DNA from: an uncultured archaeon
GTDB lineage: Archaea > Asgardarchaeota > Jordiarchaeia > Jordiarchaeales > Jordiarchaeaceae
Length of the DNA: 28,609 bases
Assembly (NCBI GenBank): GCA_964510585.1
Contig: CAZECW010000071.1
Location: 1-28,609 of the forward strand
Direction: 5' to 3'
Both the position numbers and the translations under genes were made by a program. The notes beneath the pieces are model-generated. The model was given only the letters and a program-made list of their open reading frames with translations, was not told the DNA's origin and did not search any database. Shown piece after piece: positions 9,709-24,299 of the stretch (its first letter is position 1; each line of letters begins with the position of its first letter).

Positions 9709-9969
9709 TACACTTCTACCTCCTTATTTTATAACACCTACGAATTAAACTGAATACTAGAAATGCCAATCTCACACATAGCAATAATAATGTATTTACT
9801 ACGCAGTTTATATCTTTTATTAAGCATAACTTATATGTATATTCACGATATTCTAACATTTTTTTAAATATATCCTTAACCAACAGTGCTTCTCACAGTT
9901 ATTAAAAGAAAATACAAGTCAAAATTCTTTATTTACTTATACAGGGCGCTTCTCTAAAATGTTTCACTC

Positions 9970-11244
9970 TTAACTGAGTATATCTGAGAACTTTACACTC
10001 CTTGAGTCATTTATACAGGGCATAAAGAAGAACGCAGCAGGCTCTATACCGATTTTATTTCCATTCAGTATCTCCTTTTGAATTGCTCTAATTAAACAGA
10101 TTCCCAATGGGATTTGTTTAATTGAGTAGTTTGCGAAAAGTGCCGATGTGAAAAGCCGGCCCTGCCTTACCAAAAATTGTATAACCAGAGGGTTTAAATC
10201 ATATTTTTTTTCCCAAGGATTATTAGGAGTAATAACTACTCTCCTACTCAGCTTTGATTCCTCTAATTTTCTTTTAGCCAATTTTATTTGATCAATTGTA
10301 ACAGATTTCCCTTCATCCGTTTTAGCTTTGTAGAATCTAAGAAATTTTCCCAATTCCCCCTCTCCATGTAAAATTCCTTCCACTTGATGTTCAAGCTCTA
10401 CTAATTTAACGTCTACTTCCTCTAACTTAAACCCGAAATATAAATAAAATTGTCCTCCCTCTTGAGGCTCCGAATACTTTGCAAACTTGTATTCTAATTC
10501 CGATAATACCTCACGCAAATTTTGAGATCTTAAAAGTATGGGTCCAGCCAAGTTCTCATTATTGATTCGTGGATTAGAATTGGAGGTAGGTAGCGAACCG
10601 AAAAAGCTTTGTCTTAATTCATTAATTGAAGTTTCGTATATGTGTGCTGACCCCGAAATTGTGGTTATGGTGCCCAAAGCCTTTTTACCACCAAATCTAC
10701 TTGCAACTTCTGTTAAAAAAACCGTATAAATACCAGCAACATCGTCGGGATATGCTCGGGCCATATCATTACTTCTAATATATATGGTCGAATGAATTTT
10801 TGAGCCTACTTTATGAAAAAGAACAATATTAATACAGGGAGGATTAGTGCTTAAAATGTCCGTTGGTGGGTTCCAGAGCTGGGCAAAAGCTACATTTTTC
10901 CCACTACTTAACTGATTTTTAATGTAATCCAGCTGGTTAAACGTGAATCTTTTTCTCATAGCCCATCCATAGCTATATACATGTTCCCCCTTCTCAGAAC
11001 TAATATATTGGGGAATATAACTCTCAAGAAGTGTATCCTTACTCAGCCCAATATAGTTTATTGGAACAAAATTTCCACTTTGCCAATCACTTAGATGAAT
11101 CGTAGCACAAAAAGTTTCCCTAGTTTCCTGTTTTTTGTCCTCAGTTATCTCCTTTATTCCTTTTTCGAGGATTGTGTTAATGCAACTTCTCCAAGCAACA
11201 TCTATATTTCTGGCTCGAATCAAATAAGGGCCGTAGAAGCTCAT
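9970..11244 (-). CDS. Thymidylate synthase / dCMP hydroxymethylase-fold protein with two tandem TS domains
   Basis: Domain 1: YSYG, QLDYI, LWNP, PPC137, R157SND...D168, SAH201IY203, with the same C-to-R and R-to-N/D spacing as E. coli ThyA. Domain 2 (aa about 230-424) repeats the N-terminus (GPILLRSQNL vs GPYLIRARNI) and has DQI and SR334R335VVI...QFLVRQGRL. Confidence 0.85.
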   Translation of the reverse strand: MSFYGPYLIRARNIDVAWRSCINTILEKGIKEITEDKKQETRETFCATIHLSDWQSGNFVPINYIGLSKDTLLESYIPQYISSEKGEHVYSYGWAMRKRFTFNQLDYIKNQLSSGKNVAFAQLWNPPTDILSTNPPCINIVLFHKVGSKIHSTIYIRSNDMARAYPDDVAGIYTVFLTEVASRFGGKKALGTITTISGSAHIYETSINELRQSFFGSLPTSNSNPRINNENLAGPILLRSQNLREVLSELEYKFAKYSEPQEGGQFYLYFGFKLEEVDVKLVELEHQVEGILHGEGELGKFLRFYKAKTDEGKSVTIDQIKLAKRKLEESKLSRRVVITPNNPWEKKYDLNPLVIQFLVRQGRLFTSALFANYSIKQIPLGICLIRAIQKEILNGNKIGIEPAAFFFMPCINDSRSVKFSDILS

Positions 11245-11246
11245 TT

Positions 11247-12749
11247 TTACTCACAACCAAGCTTTAAAGCATAATAGGGATGGGGAGGCTTTGGGTAAAT
11301 CCCAACCGTATTTATGTTCTCGTCCGCAATTGCAGCTTCAACAGCCGCTACCTTCCTGAATATAGCCTCAGCATTTTTTATTGGACCATAAAGATTAATG
11401 TCTATTCCATAAAGGGAAGGAAGAGCATAGTCAAAAGAAAAATCCAGATTTTTTAATTCACTGTTACTCTTAGATAGCCTTGATTGCAGATTGTGGATGC
11501 CAATACATACAGGATAACCATAGCAATTCTTAAATAACCAAGCTGCATGCAAAGCACTTATTGAACCTGCCCCCAGAATAGAAACACCAGGATCAATAAT
11601 TGGCTTCGTGATTAACCCCTCCATAAATTCAATTATTTCTCTGAACCGATTGATCCTTGAAGGTAGTTTTACATCAAAGGGCAAAACTATAGAATATTCT
11701 ATCCGTCCCATTTCGCCAATCATAGCCTTTTCTCTTTTATCCACGCCGCTAACCGAATTGTATATAACTCTACCATCTAAACCCAGATCTTTAGCTACAC
11801 CCATCGCTTCTATTCTTGCTTCCAAAACTGGCGAATCAAGAATTATTGGTGAGTCTGTGATATCTGCAACAAATAAAAGGTATCTTGTTAAAGCCTCAGA
11901 AGTTTCTCCAACTATGTGTACCATTGAGGGAATTTCGTATTTTAAAGAATTCTCCTCCTGTTTCCGAATTTGCTCCTCAGCCTTAATCTTATCAAAGACG
12001 CCTTCACTATGATTAACTACCAATTTATCCCCTCTATAAAACATGGTTCCTGCTAAAACTACGGGATATTCCCCTCTCTGCCCGCCTATCTTAATCCCAC
12101 ATATATCATAAACTCTTAGTTCCCCAGTAAATATCAAGGGATTTAATAGAGATATACCCTTATCAAGAAAGCTTTTATTTTCCTCTTGAAACCGCCTTAT
12201 TCCTTCACCCCAATCATATTCCACTTTGGGTGTTAATGGAAGAATAGGCTCCTCAGGAAATGGAGATATGTTTTGCGCATTAAGTTCATTGATTATAGAC
12301 ATCAATTTTTGAACGTTTGTTTCTCCTCGTGCATCCACCACCCTAACGATTTGACTTTGAAACCTTTTAACAAATTTATTCGGGTCGTCTCCCCTGAAAT
12401 AATTTGGATGCAAAACAGGTATAGTACCCTCACTTCCGATAATTCTATAATTTTCATCAATCCCATTGTTATAGAGCGAAATGATAGTTTGCCCCGGTTC
12501 ATGGCCAACTACACGCTCACCGCAGACTATGAGAAACCTAATATTTGGGTTTGAAGCCAAATTTTGTAAAATCTTAGCTATTCCACTATTCTCCGTCTCA
12601 CAAAAACCAACAATTGCAATTTTGTCACTCAATTTGGCTAACTCTTTTGGCAAATCGTAAGACCCACACGTAACTATGGCGATGGCCGCCTTTTCGTTTA
12701 TAACAACATAATCACCAGCAACGAATGGCCACTTTGACATAAACAACAT
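11247..12749 (-). CDS. mtrAH: MtrA-MtrH fusion (corrinoid protein + methylpterin:corrinoid methyltransferase)
   Basis: N-half: WPFVAGDYVV, TENSGIAKILQNLASNPNIRFLIVCG, GH83 cobamide ligand, IIGSEGTIP (MtrA). C-half: IKIGGQRGEYPVVLAGTMFY, FDKIKAE, IILDS, LYGPIKNA, HPYY (MtrH). Start is 12749 or 12740. Confidence 0.9.
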   Translation of the reverse strand: MLFMSKWPFVAGDYVVINEKAAIAIVTCGSYDLPKELAKLSDKIAIVGFCETENSGIAKILQNLASNPNIRFLIVCGERVVGHEPGQTIISLYNNGIDENYRIIGSEGTIPVLHPNYFRGDDPNKFVKRFQSQIVRVVDARGETNVQKLMSIINELNAQNISPFPEEPILPLTPKVEYDWGEGIRRFQEENKSFLDKGISLLNPLIFTGELRVYDICGIKIGGQRGEYPVVLAGTMFYRGDKLVVNHSEGVFDKIKAEEQIRKQEENSLKYEIPSMVHIVGETSEALTRYLLFVADITDSPIILDSPVLEARIEAMGVAKDLGLDGRVIYNSVSGVDKREKAMIGEMGRIEYSIVLPFDVKLPSRINRFREIIEFMEGLITKPIIDPGVSILGAGSISALHAAWLFKNCYGYPVCIGIHNLQSRLSKSNSELKNLDFSFDYALPSLYGIDINLYGPIKNAEAIFRKVAAVEAAIADENINTVGIYPKPPHPYYALKLGCE

Positions 12750-12812
12750 CTCTTCATAGATTGACAGCTACAATACTTATTTAATACGAGGCAAGCCTCA
12801 ACCACATAGAAA

Positions 12813-12828
12813 TTATAAAACGTTTATT
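12813..12828 (-). promoter_or_regulatory. Putative BRE/TATA promoter of the mtrAH-TS operon
   Basis: Minus strand AATAAACG-TTTTATAA, about 65-75 nt upstream of the start codon; a GAGGC-N2-GCCTC inverted repeat at 12788-12799 lies near the predicted TSS. Confidence 0.3.
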
Positions 12829-13214
12829 ATAAATCAAGTACATTTGAAATTAACTATTTGCATGTAAAAAGTTTTTCATGTAAACTTTTTTGGAAGAAAC
12901 AATTTCAGTAGGGTAATTTTGTTTTCGCAACTTTAGTCAACATCTTCACCCTTGTTTTAAGAGGCCCCTTTTCACGTTTCCTTTTGGAAGGAGACTCGAA
13001 CCTCCAAAAACCAGCCACCCACCATCAGCTGCACCGCAATCCACAAAAAAAGTACCAAAGATCTTTTTGTGCCCAAATTTTTAGAAACCAGCCCCCTGCA
13101 TTCATTATTTTCCCTGCACCTGTAAACTACAAAGCCAGCAAGAAGAAGGCTAACAATCTTAATGAGCTTTTCCTTTAACCCCTCTGTTATGGATTTTTAT
13201 CAAGCTCTGCCAGT

Positions 13215-16510: not shown

Positions 16511-16801
16511 ATGTGTGTAAAGAAGCTATTAGTATTTACACAAGTGAATTGCCCTAACTGTCCAACAATGAAAAAGATTACCTTAGAAGTGGGCAAAAAG
16601 CTAAACATACCCGTAGAATTGGTAGATATCACAAATGGTGTACCAGAGTCTTTAGAATTCGATTTACTACAAAATCAAATTTACATTTCATCAACTCCTT
16701 CCGTAGTATTGGTAAACGAAGATGGGTCAATTAGGGAATTAGTGTTGGGAGAAATTATCTATCATGAAGAATTAGAGAGGCGAATATTTAACCAAGAGTG
16801 A
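16511..16801 (+). CDS. Thioredoxin/glutaredoxin-like protein (NrdH-like)
   Basis: CPNC redox motif near the N-terminus, STP cis-Pro motif; stop overlaps the nrdD ORF start (GTGA). Confidence 0.85.
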   Translation: MCVKKLLVFTQVNCPNCPTMKKITLEVGKKLNIPVELVDITNGVPESLEFDLLQNQIYISSTPSVVLVNEDGSIRELVLGEIIYHEELERRIFNQE

Positions 16802-19188
16802 TTGCTATGTCTAACTCCAGTCATTCATCAAAAAAGAGGGAAGAGCTCCCTTTGGAACCCGAAAGCAATGGAGACTTTATCCACTCCTTACTACCCCCCG
16901 TGAGGACTTCGAGGGGTACAATCGAGAACTTTGATGTTTCTAAAATAATTAAAAGTCTTGTTAAAGAAACAGGAATCGAAAAAGAGAAGGCTGCTGAGGT
17001 AGCAAAAAGAATTGTACAACGAATCATATCCTCTAATATCCAATGGCTTTCAAGTCCCATGATACGGGAAATGGCCTGCTCAGTACTAGCCGAAATGGGT
17101 ATGGTTGAGGAAAGAAAGCGGTATACCAGAATTGGTGTGCCGATTTATGACCTAAACGAGATGATTGTTAATCCACTCAAGCATACTTGGAATGCAAACT
17201 TACAGATAAATCCCGAAACTATTGCTAAAATAGTTTATGACAAAGTTATGTCCGAACACACTTACCTAACATTACCCGGATATTTAGAAGTTGAGGTTCC
17301 CTCTGGGAAAACTTTAAGATTCACAACCAACATAGCCGACGCTCACTTAATGGGTGACAACTATCACAAAGATAGGGAATACACCAGCATAAGAGATTAC
17401 TGCGCATCATGGGATCCCAGACTATTTATGGTTTTAGGATTAGAGCCAGATGGGCTGCAGGGCGCTCACTCTTCAAGCGCTGGGCCTGCCAAACACCTAA
17501 TAGTTTTTACAAACCATGCTGCAATATGGCTTGCCTCGTGGCAAAGTAATATGTCTGGAGGCCAAGGATTTCACAATTGGATGGAGTCAATTGCCTGGTA
17601 CCTAAAAGAATTAAAACAAGAAGAACTCACAAGGGCGGCACAAAACTTAGTATCCAGTATGAACCCTGCTACCTTAAACCTTAATGAAGCTTTATACGCA
17701 AAATTCAGCCAGATCCCCAAGGAGATAATAGATTCCATAGTGGCTTACACTATGAGAGTTTTTTATGAGCGTGAAGTGGAACAAGCTTGCCAACACACAC
17801 CTTTTATCGCTACTCAACAGTATGTTGCCCGTGGTGGCCAAGTGCCCTTCACTTCCATTGATATTGGCCCTGGTATAAAAAAGGAATTTATGGATGAGCC
17901 AGTAATCATGCCCGGCGGCAAAGTTAGTGAACGCTATGTTTATGGAGATTTTGTTGAAGAAGTTAAAAAATACTTTATAACTCTGATGAAAACAATGTAT
18001 AACGGCGATAGGCACGGTAAACTTTTCAATTATCCAAAGATTAACATAGAACTTCGCGAAGAATGGATGAAGCCTGAGTTTGAGGAGGCCTATATCTGGG
18101 CTGCAAAGTTAACCGCTAAGTACGGTCTTCCCTATTTTGTAAACTACCTCAATTGGAGAAGAAAAATCGTTGGCGGGTGCGTATCCTGCTGTTCCCATAC
18201 TTGGGCAGCAGACACTCCAGAACAAAAGGAGGAATACCTCACAGGAAATGCAGTGTTCGGCGCGATTCAAATGGATACTCCCAACCCTGTTGCTAGTGCT
18301 GCCAGAACTTTTAAACAGGACGAGAGTAAGTTTTTCGAAGACTTTACACAAATAATAAATAATGTGACTATACCAAGCCTTCTAAACCGATATAACATAA
18401 TTAAAAGAATTAAAAAACTTGGGCTAGCTCCACTATACAATGTTAAACGTCCAAATGGAAAAGATATGATTATTCCTGAAGAGCGGAAGCTTCTTATAGG
18501 AACCATCGGTTTCGCTGAAATGACCGAAATAGTGGTCGGTTACCCACTTTGGCATGAAGAGGGATTGAAATTTGCATTAAAGGTTATAAAAACAATGCAG
18601 GCACTGGCTGATGAGTGGTCAGAGGAAACTGGGCTCTCCATACAGATAACTAGGACACCTGCTGAGTCGGCTGCTGGTAGACTTGCTAAAATAATGTATG
18701 AACGGTATCCTGAAATTCGACCGTTTCTTAGAGGTAGTTATCCAAATGTTTATCTGACGAACTCGGTTCACCAGCCGGTAGACGCAGATATACCGTTATC
18801 TGAAAGAATAAAGAAGGAAGCAATGTTTGCTCCGCTCCTTGGAGGAGGCTTCCTTCAGCACATTTTCTTGGACGATGCTTATCCGGATCCTGAAGCCCTA
18901 TGGAAATTCATTCAAAAAATAGCCAGAAACACTCTTACTGCTTATTTTGATTTCACAGTGGATATGTGGACTTGTAGCAGTTGCCACAGTCAGGGGCGAA
19001 TGGATTGGAAACAGAACCAGTTCAATTCCGTAGAGGAACTCTTAGACTTTAAATGCCCGAAGTGTGGGAGCCCAAATGCCGAAATTCTTTCAAGAATAAC
19101 GGGATACCTGCAAGGGCTGAAAGGAACTTGGAATGATCCCAAAAAGCAAGAATTTCTAGAACGCAGAAGGTATAACCTAAATATTTAG
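16798..19188 (+). CDS. nrdD: Anaerobic (class III) ribonucleoside-triphosphate reductase with N-terminal ATP cone
   Basis: ATP cone (VRTSRGTIENFDVSKI), RGGQVPFTS, FNYP, SCC finger loop, IGTIGFAE, RTPAESAAGRLA, YLTNS, CSSC/CPKC zinc site, glycyl-radical SRITG769YL. Start may be ATG 16807. Confidence 0.95.
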   Translation: MIAMSNSSHSSKKREELPLEPESNGDFIHSLLPPVRTSRGTIENFDVSKIIKSLVKETGIEKEKAAEVAKRIVQRIISSNIQWLSSPMIREMACSVLAEMGMVEERKRYTRIGVPIYDLNEMIVNPLKHTWNANLQINPETIAKIVYDKVMSEHTYLTLPGYLEVEVPSGKTLRFTTNIADAHLMGDNYHKDREYTSIRDYCASWDPRLFMVLGLEPDGLQGAHSSSAGPAKHLIVFTNHAAIWLASWQSNMSGGQGFHNWMESIAWYLKELKQEELTRAAQNLVSSMNPATLNLNEALYAKFSQIPKEIIDSIVAYTMRVFYEREVEQACQHTPFIATQQYVARGGQVPFTSIDIGPGIKKEFMDEPVIMPGGKVSERYVYGDFVEEVKKYFITLMKTMYNGDRHGKLFNYPKINIELREEWMKPEFEEAYIWAAKLTAKYGLPYFVNYLNWRRKIVGGCVSCCSHTWAADTPEQKEEYLTGNAVFGAIQMDTPNPVASAARTFKQDESKFFEDFTQIINNVTIPSLLNRYNIIKRIKKLGLAPLYNVKRPNGKDMIIPEERKLLIGTIGFAEMTEIVVGYPLWHEEGLKFALKVIKTMQALADEWSEETGLSIQITRTPAESAAGRLAKIMYERYPEIRPFLRGSYPNVYLTNSVHQPVDADIPLSERIKKEAMFAPLLGGGFLQHIFLDDAYPDPEALWKFIQKIARNTLTAYFDFTVDMWTCSSCHSQGRMDWKQNQFNSVEELLDFKCPKCGSPNAEILSRITGYLQGLKGTWNDPKKQEFLERRRYNLNI

Positions 19189-21126: not shown

Positions 21127-21230
21127 ACATGGTAAATAGTCTTACGAATAAAAAATATTAATCAATATTGATTGGTAACCCCACTGGATTTAAAAATTTT
21201 ACAAGACTAACTATCGAGGCGTGGCTAAAT

Positions 21231-23213
21231 TTGGAAGAAGATAAAAAGCCCATTTTTGAAGTCGCCAAACATGATGGCCCGGGTAGAATTGGAAGGATAG
21301 AGTTAACAGATAAAAAAATTCTGACCCCCTCAATTATTCACGCTAAATATCCTCATATAAATTATGTTTCTGAAGAAATGTTAATTTTTAATATTCTCCC
21401 TGACTCTTTAAAAGAAAACAGTTATGTAAATGTTTTTATGACAAACACGGCTAATCCTCTCATTTATGACAACTTAGATCAATGTTTGGAAGACCAATTA
21501 AAATTACAGCCAAAGATTTTAACAGTTCCCTGCGGCCTTTTTTTAGAACTGGAACGGGAAAACACTAGAAAGTTTTTCGATAATCTACTTAAGAATTCTG
21601 TCTATTTCAAAGAAAGAGCTGAAAAAAGGTATCTCGCGGTTCCAATATTCTATTCAAGGTATTTCGATCTGTGTGAAAAGCACATATTTGATCTCTCTCA
21701 ACTAGGTTTTGACGTTTATATTTTGAAGAATATAGGGAACGTTATAGGGAATCCCCGTGAGTTGGTAGAATTTATTATAAAGGTCAGGGGAAAAATTCCG
21801 CCTAACTCTTTAGTTTATGTTCCGGGTCCAATTCATCCCGCATACTATTCTCATCTAGTCTATTTCGGAGTTGATATTTTCGATACAACACTTATGATAC
21901 AGGAGGCAAGAAGAAATAATTTATTACAAGAATTTGGGTCAAAAAAGATTTGGGATTTAGTTGAACTTCCTTGCAACTGTGAGATATGTTCAACATACAC
22001 TATTTCTGAATTAAGAGAGATGCATTCAAATGAGCGCTTTTATAAATTATTGCAACACAACATTCTTTTTTCAACCTCTGTATTAAAAAAGATTAGGTTA
22101 GATATAAGAGAGGGGTTCCTGCGGGAGAGAGTGGAGCTATCATCACATTACTCACCGGCAATGGCGGCCTCCCTTCGAATTATGGATAACACTCACTATA
22201 ATTTTCTTGAGGAGTACACTCCAATTGCTAAAAAGGGAATGGTATATTGTATAGGGTCGGAGTCCTATAATAGGCCGGAAATTAAACGATTTAGAATAAG
22301 GGTTTCAGAACGATATACCCCCATCATAGGTATCAAAACGGTAGTCATTTTACCCTGCTCCGCAAAAAAGCCCTACTCACTTTCACAATCACATAAAAGG
22401 TTTAGGAAAGTTATAAGAAGTGTTGGTAAGGGAATGATACAAGAGGTTATACTTTCGTCCCCCCTTGGACTTGTTCCAAGAGAGCTAGAACAAGTTTATC
22501 CCGCGGCGCATTATGATATTCCCGTGACAGGCGATTGGGATTACGAAGAAATAGAAATCGCTTCAAGTTCTCTCTCAAAATATTTGGAAAAGTTAGATAA
22601 AGAAACGGTAGTAATAGCACATTTAGATGGAGGATACCGCAAAGCCTGTTTAAAGGCTTCCGAGATTTCTGGAAAAGATATTATATTCACCGAGGTGAGC
22701 GGCAACATAACTGGAGAAAAAAGCTTGTCTAGTTTAAAAAGAAATCTAGAAGAGTATGCTGACTTGTCAGGCTCTAAAAAGATTGGGGCAATAGACTGTT
22801 TGAGAAAAATCGCTGACTACCAATTCGGGATAGGCGCCGCAGAAAAGCTAATACCTAACGATGCAGATTTTAGGAGAGATAGGATGGGGAATGTGAAAAT
22901 TTTAGTAGACCAAAAATTAATTGCTGTATTTACCCCAATATTTGGTTTACTTAGAATGACCCTAAAAGGCGCCGAAAGGTTAGTTGGTCACGGCTATTGG
23001 ATAGAATTTGATGGAGATATTCTAGATGGAAAAAACCTTTTCGCTCCAGGCGTTAAAGATGCAGACCCACAGATTAGACCGGGAGACTCTGTAATGATTT
23101 ATAATGTGGAAAAAGAACTAATTGCTGTGGGGATATCTAATATGAGTGGATTAGAGATGAAACAATGTAAAAAAGGTGTTGCCGTTGAGCTCACCGAGAA
23201 AAAGAAGGATTAA
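21231..23213 (+). CDS. arcS: Archaeosine synthase ArcS (TGT-like domain, lysine transferase domain, PUA domain)
   Basis: HDGPGRIG, GVDIFD, LPCNCEIC zinc site, ILPCSAKKPYSLSQSH (PCx3KPYx2Sx2H), YPAAHYDIPVTGDW, PUA LFAPGVKDADPQIRPGD. Start set at TTG 21231 after GAGG; the ORF track extends to 21168. Confidence 0.9.
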   Translation: MEEDKKPIFEVAKHDGPGRIGRIELTDKKILTPSIIHAKYPHINYVSEEMLIFNILPDSLKENSYVNVFMTNTANPLIYDNLDQCLEDQLKLQPKILTVPCGLFLELERENTRKFFDNLLKNSVYFKERAEKRYLAVPIFYSRYFDLCEKHIFDLSQLGFDVYILKNIGNVIGNPRELVEFIIKVRGKIPPNSLVYVPGPIHPAYYSHLVYFGVDIFDTTLMIQEARRNNLLQEFGSKKIWDLVELPCNCEICSTYTISELREMHSNERFYKLLQHNILFSTSVLKKIRLDIREGFLRERVELSSHYSPAMAASLRIMDNTHYNFLEEYTPIAKKGMVYCIGSESYNRPEIKRFRIRVSERYTPIIGIKTVVILPCSAKKPYSLSQSHKRFRKVIRSVGKGMIQEVILSSPLGLVPRELEQVYPAAHYDIPVTGDWDYEEIEIASSSLSKYLEKLDKETVVIAHLDGGYRKACLKASEISGKDIIFTEVSGNITGEKSLSSLKRNLEEYADLSGSKKIGAIDCLRKIADYQFGIGAAEKLIPNDADFRRDRMGNVKILVDQKLIAVFTPIFGLLRMTLKGAERLVGHGYWIEFDGDILDGKNLFAPGVKDADPQIRPGDSVMIYNVEKELIAVGISNMSGLEMKQCKKGVAVELTEKKKD

Positions 23214-23216
23214 AAA

Positions 23217-24299
23217 ATGCTAGGATGCAATGATTCTGAATTATCCAGTAAGATATTTGAAATCCGTCAAAAAGGTCTAAACAGATACAGAGAGGACTTT
23301 ACCAGAAGGCCTGTAAAATTCTGGTTGGAAAAGGACAGGTTGTTAAATAAGGTTGGAACATCTCTAGTGGTTATTCTTGCTACAAGAGGCTGCAGCTGGG
23401 CTTTATCAGATAAGGGAGGCTGCTCCATGTGCGGGTACATATATGACACGCCTATTACTGTCCCTGATTCCGAATCTTTAATTAAACAATTTGATTTGGC
23501 TTATGATGCCTGCCGCTCAGTTGAAGGTTCCTTAGCAATCAAAATTTTTACTTCTGGTAGTTTTTTGGACGAGCAGGAGGTTCCTAAAGCTGCAAGGAAA
23601 GCTATTTTTAAAAAAATCGCGTCAGATGAACGGGTTGAGGAAGTAATTGTGGAAACAAGACCGCAGTATGTGAATTATGAACTTTTAAGCGAATGCCACG
23701 ACATACTAAGGGACATCTATTTAGAGATAGGAATTGGCCTTGAAACAAGTAACGATGAAATCAGGAATCATTACATAAACAAAGGTTTCAATCTAAATGA
23801 GTTTGAGAGAGCTGTTTCAATAGCTAATAAAAGCGGGGTCGGTGTAAAGTCATACATACTTATTAAACCACCATTTCTAAGGGAAAGAGAAGCCATAATA
23901 GATTCTATACAGTCTGCTGAGGACTCTTTTAAAATCGGCGTAAATTCCATATCCTTTAATCCCTGCACAGTTCACAGAGGCACTCTAGTGGAATACCTTT
24001 GGAATCAGGGTAAGTATAGGCCTCCATGGCTTTGGAGTGTGATTGAAATCCTGAAAATCATCTCTAAGAATCTAACTAAAAACAAAAGAATTATCTGCAG
24101 TTTAGTAGGGATAGGAAGTGAAAAGGGCCCACATAACTGTGGAAAATGTGATAAAAGAATTAAAGACCTTTTGGCTGAATTCACATTAAATCAAAATCCG
24201 GAAGTACTGCTAAAGGCTGAGTGTGACTGTAAAAGTGAGTGGCGTGACTACTGTGAAGAGGAATTTATTTGGGACAGGACGCCCGATAAATACAAGTAA
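23217..24299 (+). CDS. raSEA: Radical SAM enzyme for archaeosine formation (RaSEA)
   Basis: TRGCSW...GGCSMCGY atypical cluster motif, IFTSGSFLD, VETRP, IGLET, YRPPWLWS; 3 nt downstream of arcS. Confidence 0.88.
   Translation: MLGCNDSELSSKIFEIRQKGLNRYREDFTRRPVKFWLEKDRLLNKVGTSLVVILATRGCSWALSDKGGCSMCGYIYDTPITVPDSESLIKQFDLAYDACRSVEGSLAIKIFTSGSFLDEQEVPKAARKAIFKKIASDERVEEVIVETRPQYVNYELLSECHDILRDIYLEIGIGLETSNDEIRNHYINKGFNLNEFERAVSIANKSGVGVKSYILIKPPFLREREAIIDSIQSAEDSFKIGVNSISFNPCTVHRGTLVEYLWNQGKYRPPWLWSVIEILKIISKNLTKNKRIICSLVGIGSEKGPHNCGKCDKRIKDLLAEFTLNQNPEVLLKAECDCKSEWRDYCEEEFIWDRTPDKYK

Follow-up and report, generated by a model that had tools for sequence, protein, structure and literature searches.

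A conserved pairing of an MtrA-MtrH fusion with a two-domain thymidylate synthase-fold protein in Asgard archaea, and a possible cobamide-dependent route to thymidylate

Analysis of a 28,609-nt stretch of DNA from an uncultured Asgard archaeon (contig CAZECW010000071.1; hereafter the window, whose positions serve as coordinates; source genome G000) identified two adjacent minus-strand genes whose products very probably act together to provide thymidylate, being coupled both functionally and physically. The upstream gene, mtrAH (11247-12749, with its TAA stop at 11247-11249), was recognised from its open reading frame (ORF) and from Pfam and NCBIfam matches, and encodes a soluble MtrA-MtrH fusion of 500 aa (P0001, MtrAH). 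The downstream gene (9970-11244, stop at 9970-9972), delineated by the same evidence and an AlphaFold model, encodes a single-chain, two-domain protein of 424 aa with a thymidylate synthase (TS) fold (P0002, here the double-TS protein). An earlier inspection of the letters alone (the sequence-only reading) had singled out MtrAH and the TS-fold protein as a pair for which it knew of no example; that they form a dedicated pair is strongly supported by the invariant adjacency of their genes, their co-restricted distribution, a confidently predicted complex between the proteins and the lack of another TS. The pair is a real, conserved and uncharacterised system that unites two known kinds. To our knowledge, thymidylate synthesis is essential and is carried out by only two known classes of enzyme, ThyA and ThyX, and the synthesis of deoxythymidine monophosphate (dTMP) in archaea that use tetrahydromethanopterin (H4MPT) has never been biochemically settled. 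The pair therefore joins two questions, namely the role of MtrAH in Asgard archaea and the source of thymine in these organisms.

To assess how widely the two genes are linked, 301 Asgard genomes were surveyed. Full-length double-TS genes were present in 18 of these, from GTDB families f1, f2, f10, f13 and f16, and in 18/18 the gene just ahead of them, on the same strand of the same contig, was an MtrA match. A separate survey of GTDB species genomes (80 loci) placed mtrAH immediately upstream in 7/7 Asgard double-TS loci, from Freyarchaeota, Jordarchaeia, Borrarchaeota and 'Promethearchaeota'. Across lineages the two genes were separated by 2-44 nt. The flanks of the pair differed: F420-ligase-like, CofC-like and RimK-like genes with a thymidylate kinase close by in Borrarchaeum, EMG1 and ribosomal genes in Atabeyarchaeia-1, whose genome is closed, and LeuA-like and proteasome genes in the window. 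Because the adjacency recurs in every carrier of both surveys amid these differing flanks, it is not due to chance, and the neighbourhood survey that the sequence-only reading had called for thus returned a conserved linkage rather than its loss in other genomes. The double-TS family (43 clusters) was confined to the same lineages as the MtrAH subfamily (39 close members or clusters, all from Asgard metagenome-assembled genomes (MAGs)), the best matches among double-TS relatives being found in Freyarchaeota, Jordarchaeia and other Asgard MAGs, and at least 16 metagenomic contigs, recognised by identical lengths in the two families, appear to carry both.

P0002 matched the Pfam family Thymidylat_synt over residues 87-212 (43.6 bits; cut-off 24.3) and the NCBIfam model of methanogen-type TS, TIGR03283, over residues 8-209 with 112 bits, under the cut-off of 174.55; it fell far under all cut-offs of the bacterial-type TS equivalogs in NCBIfam. 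An alignment of 23 relatives (41-78% identity) was used together with hidden Markov model (HMM) alignment to TS structures in the PDB and VIA structure searches to locate the catalytic residues. The N-terminal domain (residues 1-215; 10600-11244) is catalytically equipped: P135-P136-C137, R157-S158-(N159)-D160, H201 and Y203 are invariant in the 23 sequences and aligned to the TS motifs of known structures, with Cys137 (codon TGT, 10834-10836) as the nucleophile of the PPC motif. D160, which is likewise invariant, we take to be the counterpart of D169, the pterin-binding Asp of E. coli TS. The Arg-Arg pair that precedes WNP is missing from this half, which reads NVAFAQLWNP in the alignment. 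The C-terminal domain (residues 238-424; 9973-10533), identified as a degenerate TS domain from the model and from VIA and Foldseek searches, is without the Cys, RS.D and H.Y motifs. It still has an invariant S333-R334-R335, after which comes NNP; the codons of R334-R335, the counterpart of the Arg pair, are at 10240-10245. When the family HMM was aligned to TS of the PDB, RSnDiaRayseD fell on RSGDMGLGVPFN and esRRivvtpnnP on ESRRMIISSWNP. In homodimeric TS, the Arg pair extends into the dUMP (deoxyuridine monophosphate) phosphate site of the partner subunit; in P0002, as aligned, it is supplied from within the chain by the C-terminal half, with no need of a second subunit. Between the two domains lies a linker (residues 216-237; 10534-10599), defined by the alignment and the complex model, that contains the invariant G234-P235 and accounts for a large part of the contact surface predicted with the MtrH domain.

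Structure prediction gave a confident fold for the whole of P0002 (AlphaFold; mean predicted local distance difference test (pLDDT) 91.2, predicted template modelling score (pTM) 0.93). Over residues 4-224, the N-terminal half matched TS-fold enzymes in VIA searches with Z scores of 19-22.4 and a root-mean-square deviation (rmsd) of 2.1-2.5 across ~200 aligned residues. The C-terminal half, folded alone (pLDDT 90.4), matched only TS-fold enzymes in a VIA search made independently of Foldseek (Z 12-15.6, with the next unrelated chain at Z 5.7), and matched E. coli TS in Foldseek with E 1e-7. Profile-profile comparison of the two halves found the correct register at only E 0.026 and a probability of 1.9%. 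The evidence for a duplication is therefore one of fold rather than of sequence. Taken together, these alignments and models predict for P0002 a fused pseudo-dimer whose single active site is a composite of the catalytic residues of the N-terminal half and of R334 and R335 from the C-terminal half. In the light of established structural knowledge of TS, the conservation of H201, Y203 and three phosphate-binding Arg residues indicates a 2'-deoxynucleoside 5'-monophosphate as the substrate. At the canonical base-specificity site (E. coli N177, L. casei N229), ungapped HMM alignment placed not Asn but Asp168 (codon 10741-10743), which is invariant in 23/23 double-TS proteins. Asn was found at the equivalent position of all other archaeal-type TS examined, that is, Asgard single-domain TS, a 337-aa form, the second TS-like gene of G000 and all of the MtrA-like fusions described below.

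The partner protein, P0001, carries an MtrA corrinoid-binding domain at residues 5-170 (12240-12737; PF04208, 131.7 bits, cut-off 25) and an MtrH methyl-pterin-binding TIM barrel at residues 212-478 (11316-12116; PF02007, 195.6 bits, cut-off 22.8). Both domains scored under the corresponding NCBIfam equivalog cut-offs (mtrA, 127 versus 249 bits; mtrH, 186 versus 271 bits). The MtrA domain matched the cobalamin-bound MtrA structures 5L8X/5LAA in phmmer searches with E 2e-30, with CGERVVGHEPGQ aligned on CGSEVQGHITGQ and CETEN on CHTEN. His83 (codon CAT, 12501-12503), part of G82-H83-E-P-G-Q, aligned within the GH-I-T-GQ of structure-solved MtrA at a position that, in the published MtrA structure, is reportedly that of the cobalt ligand; G82, H83, P85, G86, Q87, E51, E53 and N54 were invariant in 25 MtrAH sequences. 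The codons of His83 and Cys137 thus encode the very residues that had been numbered from the sequence alone. A linker of ~35 aa joins the two domains, and the MtrA domain has no C-terminal membrane helix, MtrH being fused at the position of the anchor. For the MtrH domain, the closest phmmer matches were the MtrH 8Z9U_B (E 1.5e-41) and MtgA (6SJ8/6SK4, E 1e-36), a methylcorrinoid:tetrahydrofolate (THF) methyltransferase. PDB 8Z9U chain B is an MtrH of 344 aa, and was nearer to this domain than was 9QTP, the MtrH of a methanogen Mtr complex (E 2e-28). No MtrE was found in G000 or in 20 relatives, and no second MtrA locus in G000, which has three standalone canonical MtrH genes elsewhere in the genome.

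Complex prediction supports binding between the TS protein and MtrAH via the MtrH domain. All three runs reached an interface score ipSAE (interaction prediction score from aligned errors) of 0.92, while none of the three controls scored above 0.00; at least 88% of contacts were common to the runs, and the partner pLDDT was 88. The mark used for this score was passed by 58/80 solved complexes and 2/110 mismatched pairs, a calibration that is rough only, own family alignments having been used. Since we know of no solved TS-MtrH complex, a memorised structure is unlikely to account for the result. On the TS side the interface comprises residues 7-23, 50-53, 214-237 (which spans the linker between the halves and its edges), 253 and 257, and on the MtrH-domain side residues 215-231, 258-275, 295-300, 320-327, 347-348 and 487-490; it includes the invariant residues G234 and P235 of TS and D299 and G323 of MtrAH. 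The sequence-only reading had suggested docking MtrA His83 near Cys137 of the TS protein: a TS-MtrAH complex is indeed predicted, but the contact runs through MtrH and not through MtrA.

Alternative sources of thymidylate were sought in five carriers of the pair (G000, G038, G012, G023 and G041, of which G038, G012 and G023 are single-contig, closed genomes). ThyX gave no match in these five or in a sixth genome, G006, and thymidine kinase none in the five. Each double-TS carrier had one TS-family match, G000 excepted, and the lack of any further TS-family gene indicates a role for the double-TS protein in thymidylate synthesis. As judged from these searches, the double-TS protein is the only recognisable thymidylate-making enzyme in several Asgard groups, which bears on the question, raised in the sequence-only reading, of whether carriers lack other thyA or thyX. 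All five carriers also encode a DCD-family dCTP deaminase, which can yield dUMP, as well as Mch of the H4MPT pathway and a RACo/RamA-type corrinoid activase (PF14574, RACo_C_ter). A FolA-type dihydrofolate reductase (DHFR) was found in none of 21 genomes, and this absence does not discriminate between readings because it holds whatever the type of TS.

The additional TS-like gene of G000 (C121:10061-10804; L001:1240-1983; L093) encodes a single-domain protein with the Cys and the Asn, no Arg-Arg pair, and a TIGR03283 score of 111.7 bits. Upstream of it is the gene of a 342-aa protein that matches nothing in Pfam and has a Cys-rich ribbon at its C terminus; QueC-like and pyruvate-kinase-barrel-like genes lie downstream and a DNA methylase 6 kb off. 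The gene is absent from all five same-genus genomes and, on the strength of that absence, the missing Arg-Arg pair and its neighbours, was rejected as a competing housekeeping TS. It may be part of a nucleotide- or DNA-modification island.

Under the mechanism that we favour, the mtrAH and TS genes would encode one enzyme system that supplies cellular thymidylate by a methyl relay. The TS protein would dock stably onto the MtrH barrel of MtrAH, and its composite site (C137, R157, D160, D168, H201 and Y203, with R334 and R335) would bind a pyrimidine 2'-deoxynucleoside 5'-monophosphate, to which Cys137 would add at C6, thereby activating C5 of the nucleotide. MtrH would transfer a methyl group from N5-methyl-tetrahydromethanopterin (or methyl-THF) to the Co(I) cobamide on MtrA (His83), and the tethered MtrA domain would swing to the TS site, presenting CH3-Co(III). 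The C5 carbanion would then attack CH3-Co(III), as it does S-adenosylmethionine in C5-pyrimidine methyltransferases, and proton loss and elimination of the Cys would yield dTMP (or, from deoxycytidine monophosphate (dCMP), 5-methyl-dCMP), tetrahydropterin and Co(I). No dihydropterin would be formed and no reductase required, and an activase of the RACo/RamA type, encoded elsewhere, would rescue oxidised Co(II). This relay, from methyl-pterin via MtrH and the MtrA cobamide to C5 of the Cys137-bound dUMP (or dCMP), has in our estimation a probability of roughly 0.45. The proposal builds on the observed domain identities, motif conservation, invariant linkage, absence of other TS routes and predicted complex; what it would add to them is cobamide loading, the methyl relay as such, the choice of nucleotide and the nature of the product.

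Three options had been offered in the sequence-only reading: direct methylation of the activated C5 by methyl-cobamide, loading or recycling of the pterin carrier by MtrAH for the TS enzyme, and production of a modified nucleotide or cofactor. The first of these is the most coherent, because the His83/CETEN motif is intact, the RACo-type activase is present in 5/5 carriers and the TS protein is without the C-terminal segment that closes over the cofactor, though computation cannot separate the three. Slightly more tentative is the broader proposition that the system represents a third mechanistic class of thymidylate synthesis, one that would be cobamide-dependent, would draw on a donor at the methyl level and would release tetrahydropterin, with neither the pterin hydride of ThyA nor the flavin and NADPH of ThyX. 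Were the methyl-cobamide route true, it would constitute new enzyme chemistry and make DNA synthesis in these Asgard archaea dependent on vitamin B12, so that replication would be linked to the supply of B12 in the archaea most closely related to eukaryotes. Should the chemistry prove conventional, there would still be novelty in a TS that is asymmetric and fused by nature and in its obligate complex with MtrH.

A number of observations weigh against the relay. In the complex model no contact was reported for the MtrA domain. The invariance of D160 suggests that a pterin site may persist on the TS protein, and Asp168 is unexpected in an enzyme acting on dUMP. CobS was found only in G000 and G041 and was absent from the closed genomes G038, G012 and G023, which would therefore need to import complete cobamide. 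Of ~58 loci of methanogen-type, single-domain TS, only L083 has an MtrA or MtrH within 8 kb, and there the gene is on the other strand at a distance of 4 kb; the idea that all methanogen-type TS are linked to Mtr by gene order was rejected on these grounds. Elsewhere, a partnership between TS and the MtrA fold exists without the cobalt ligand, in the His-less fusions described below.

The strongest alternative, which we nevertheless consider somewhat unlikely, is that the TS protein carries out conventional reductive methylation with methylene-H4MPT, the bound MtrH barrel providing or channelling the pterin and the cobamide not being the direct donor; as a variant of this, MtrAH might feed corrinoid-borne methyl groups into the H4MPT pool beside TS as a consumer. 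P0002 would on this account be a short archaeal TS without the C-terminal segment that closes over folate, its predicted interface is with the pterin-binding MtrH barrel and not with MtrA, and the invariant D160 stands in the place of the canonical D169. MtrH chemistry, however, is at the methyl level, and conversion of methyl to methylene requires Mer, which is not in the operon. An idle cobamide is also hard to square with a corrinoid motif that is invariant in 25 MtrA sequences, and general methyl entry in G000 is already served by its three standalone canonical MtrH. No FolA-type reductase was found, although this is uninformative for users of H4MPT.

A further set of proteins bears on this alternative. 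Among distant matches of the double-TS protein were evolutionarily related single-chain MtrA-like/TS/DUF4346 fusions, which carry no annotation beyond 'thymidylate synthase'. They come from DPANN archaea (Woesearchaeota, Aenigmatarchaeota, Nanoarchaeota and Huberarchaeum), several bacteria of the candidate phyla radiation and two Asgard genomes (L009:2949-4382 in G059 and L010:2848-4185 in G084). One fusion, P0048, is additionally joined to thymidylate kinase, and another, from Woesearchaeota (L006:5499-8409), stands in a row of dUTPase/DCD, fusion, thymidylate kinase and glutaredoxin genes. To judge by the kinase fusion and the gene context, these two proteins clearly serve dTMP synthesis. 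The fusions have Asn at the specificity site, mostly keep an Arg-Arg pair of their own and have no MtrH domain; in their MtrA-like domain the His is deleted or replaced by Phe or Tyr, and CETEN is gone. No MtrH was found in the two Asgard genomes with a fusion, which are themselves only 73-76% complete. DUF4346 otherwise occurs as the C-terminal tail of the 'dihydropteroate synthase-like protein' TIGR00284, and nothing relevant on this domain was found in the literature searched. Because a His-less MtrA-like domain and DUF4346 are fused to TS in these proteins, the ancient partnership between TS and the MtrA fold may concern pterin handling, as conventional chemistry would have it. As read from their sequences, the fusions point to an old physical partnership of TS with the MtrA fold but give no support to a cobamide mechanism. 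The double-TS system resembles them in that an archaeal-type TS core is partnered with an MtrA-fold domain in the setting of dTMP synthesis; it differs in consisting of two ORFs and in keeping the His, and P0002 gave no DUF4346 match at E<=0.1.

A different question is whether the substrate is dCMP and the product 5-methyl-dCMP, with thymidylate arising by deamination or the product serving another purpose. This possibility, which is compatible with either mechanism, we also hold to be rather improbable. It is raised by Asp168, invariant here and Asn in all other archaeal-type TS examined: the corresponding change in L. casei TS, N229D, reportedly turns that enzyme into a dCMP methylase, and in T4 dCMP hydroxymethylase the base-specificity residue is an Asp. 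PDB entries 1NJC and 6L18 were among the structural matches of the TS halves, and the best neighbours of the N-terminal half were the dCMP hydroxylase 9IQU (Z 22.4, rmsd 2.1, 197 residues aligned) and the CMP hydroxymethylase MilA (Z ~21), with L. casei TS at Z ~19.5. These differences in Z are small, however, and the dead C-terminal half also has its best match in 9IQC, so the ranking may reflect a compact fold. Among the five carriers, a PF00383 (cytidine/dCMP deaminase) match was found in G038 and G041 only, leaving G000 and the closed genomes G012 and G023 with none, whereas DCD-family enzymes, which lead to dUTP or dUMP, are present in all carriers, with no other TS there to consume the dUMP. 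In G012 and G023, which are Atabeyarchaeia-like, three DCD paralogues each were seen (~171, 126-136 and 45-50 bits), together with a lack of PF00383, FolD and CobS matches; the extra copies would become relevant should TS turn out to make a 5-methylcytosine nucleotide.

That the two genes merely share an inherited order, with MtrAH working in methylotrophic or Wood-Ljungdahl carbon flow and TS alone, is very improbable: most carriers do belong to related Asgard classes, such that part of the conservation is shared ancestry, and methanogens do run the same TS family with no Mtr gene nearby, but the flanks have been fully reshuffled around a pair that stays intact, the MtrAH and double-TS subfamilies occur only together, and the complex score far exceeds that of its controls at an interface containing the invariant G234, P235 and G323.

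Turning to known systems, P0002 is most like ThyA of the short archaeal type (TIGR03283, MJ0757-like), with which it shares the TS fold, the Cys of the PC motif, RS.D, H.Y and an Arg-Arg pair contributed by a second domain. Unlike ThyA, it has two fused domains with complementary losses that form one active site, Asp in place of the specificity Asn, a constant pairing with MtrAH and predicted MtrAH binding. Among TS-fold enzymes that act on cytosine nucleotides (T4 dCMP hydroxymethylase, MilA, L. casei TS N229D and AfhB), the likeness lies in the compact TS fold and, in the dCMP enzymes, in Asp at the specificity position. AfhB, a phage dCMP hydroxylase working with a flavin monooxygenase (9IQU/9IQC), sets a precedent in that its TS fold activates C5 for the reagent of another cofactor system. 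Identity to these enzymes is only 11-19%, and none of them is a fused pseudo-dimer or linked to a corrinoid.

On the corrinoid side, the MtrA fold with its His and the MtrH barrel are those of the Mtr complex, whereas the membrane-anchored MtrA and the MtrE of that complex are lacking. The proposed scheme would also work like MetH and the three-component corrinoid systems (MT1/corrinoid protein/MT2/RamA), in which a pterin barrel, a mobile corrinoid domain, a module that activates the acceptor and a separate activase are combined. Of the three-component parts, an MT1 (MtrH), a corrinoid protein (MtrA) and an activase are present, while an MT2 of known type (MtaA/MtbA, MtrE or a Zn barrel) is not. 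Where those systems use a Zn-thiolate barrel or a UroD-fold MT2, the acceptor module here would be a TS fold with a carbon nucleophile, and the corrinoid domain has the MtrA fold rather than the B12 fold of MetH. The resemblance is by analogy a mechanistic one only, the acceptor module not being homologous, and does not make the pair a member of either group.

The Asgard MtrA-MtrH fusion has been described before (Valentin-Alvarado et al. 2024, PMC11291895, Fig. 5) and is of the same family, soluble and without other Mtr subunits; the Atabeyarchaeia-1 copy of that work is P0088 on CP147779, where it adjoins the double-TS protein P0033. There, the fate of the methyl group carried by Asgard MtrAH was considered uncertain and the acceptor not known, possibly coenzyme M, whereas our proposal is that the methyl group passes to the nucleotide bound by TS; the word 'thymidylate' occurs 0 times in that text and the adjacent TS gene is unmentioned. 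A survey of Asgard thymidylate synthases (Filee et al. 2023, PMC9931769) mentions no Mtr or fusions and remarks that the biochemistry of archaeal TS has seen no follow-up, and little was said to be known about the biochemistry of methanogen ThyA in a comparative study of 2022 (PMC9012536). In the literature searched, no paper linking TS with MtrA or MtrH was found.

Within the window, the minus-strand junction of the two genes reads ...GAG TAA AA ATG AGC..., so that only 2 nt (AA, 11245-11246) separate the stop codon of mtrAH from the start codon of the TS gene, exactly as described in the sequence-only reading. So short a spacer suggests that the two genes are translationally coupled. They are set apart from their neighbours by gaps of 600 nt to a LeuA-like gene and 260 nt to psmA and, because of these gaps, are taken to form a unit of their own. 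A TATA-like box, TATTAAATAA, was read by eye at 12777-12786 on the minus strand, 28-37 nt upstream of the mtrAH ATG, and is a possible archaeal promoter from which a near-leaderless transcript of two genes could arise. Contigs labelled as metatranscriptomic (two runs) span the mtrAH-TS junction; they were flagged as probably DNA, a single transcript is not demonstrable from contigs, and they were given no weight. The window DNA is also present in hot-spring metagenomes.

The gene content of the window, which includes proteasome alpha, SBDS, exosome Rrp4/41/42, prefoldin, L37ae, LeuA-like, NrdD, ArcS-like with a radical-SAM partner, and L2/L3/L4 genes, is archaeal. Pfam scans of the remaining ORFs found no other mtr subunit, DHFR or phage gene, in agreement with what had been noted from the letters. 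At 16511-19188 (plus strand), a small thioredoxin/glutaredoxin-like ORF overlaps the start of NrdD, an anaerobic ribonucleotide reductase with an ATP-cone; lying 4 kb from the mtrAH-TS pair, NrdD is a second gene of deoxynucleotide supply close by. Further along the same strand (21168-24299), the gene of a TGT-like/DUF5591/PUA protein (681 aa) is followed after 4 nt by that of a radical-SAM protein (360 aa), a pair that resembles the archaeosine synthase ArcS with its radical-SAM partner and is seemingly ordinary.

Two arrangements in other Asgard genomes were also recorded. On the Borrarchaeum contig JAEOSF010000001 (L003:1012-4374 and 9963-13158), the genes upstream of mtrAH-TS are two of the RimK ATP-grasp type, a CofC-like nucleotidyltransferase and an F420-ligase-like gene, which may modify a cofactor tail, and downstream are a thymidylate kinase fragment, an RRXRR/HNH endonuclease gene and then a full tmk. 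In many genomes of Asgard family f7, one contig holds both a single-domain TS of ~210 aa, in which RR and Asn are present, and a standalone MtrA of ~232 aa at a steady distance of 18-23 kb (for example G166:C2:191130-215142 and G075:C1:487929-507192); this ~20-kb pairing was regarded as conserved synteny only, and was not used as support for an operon.

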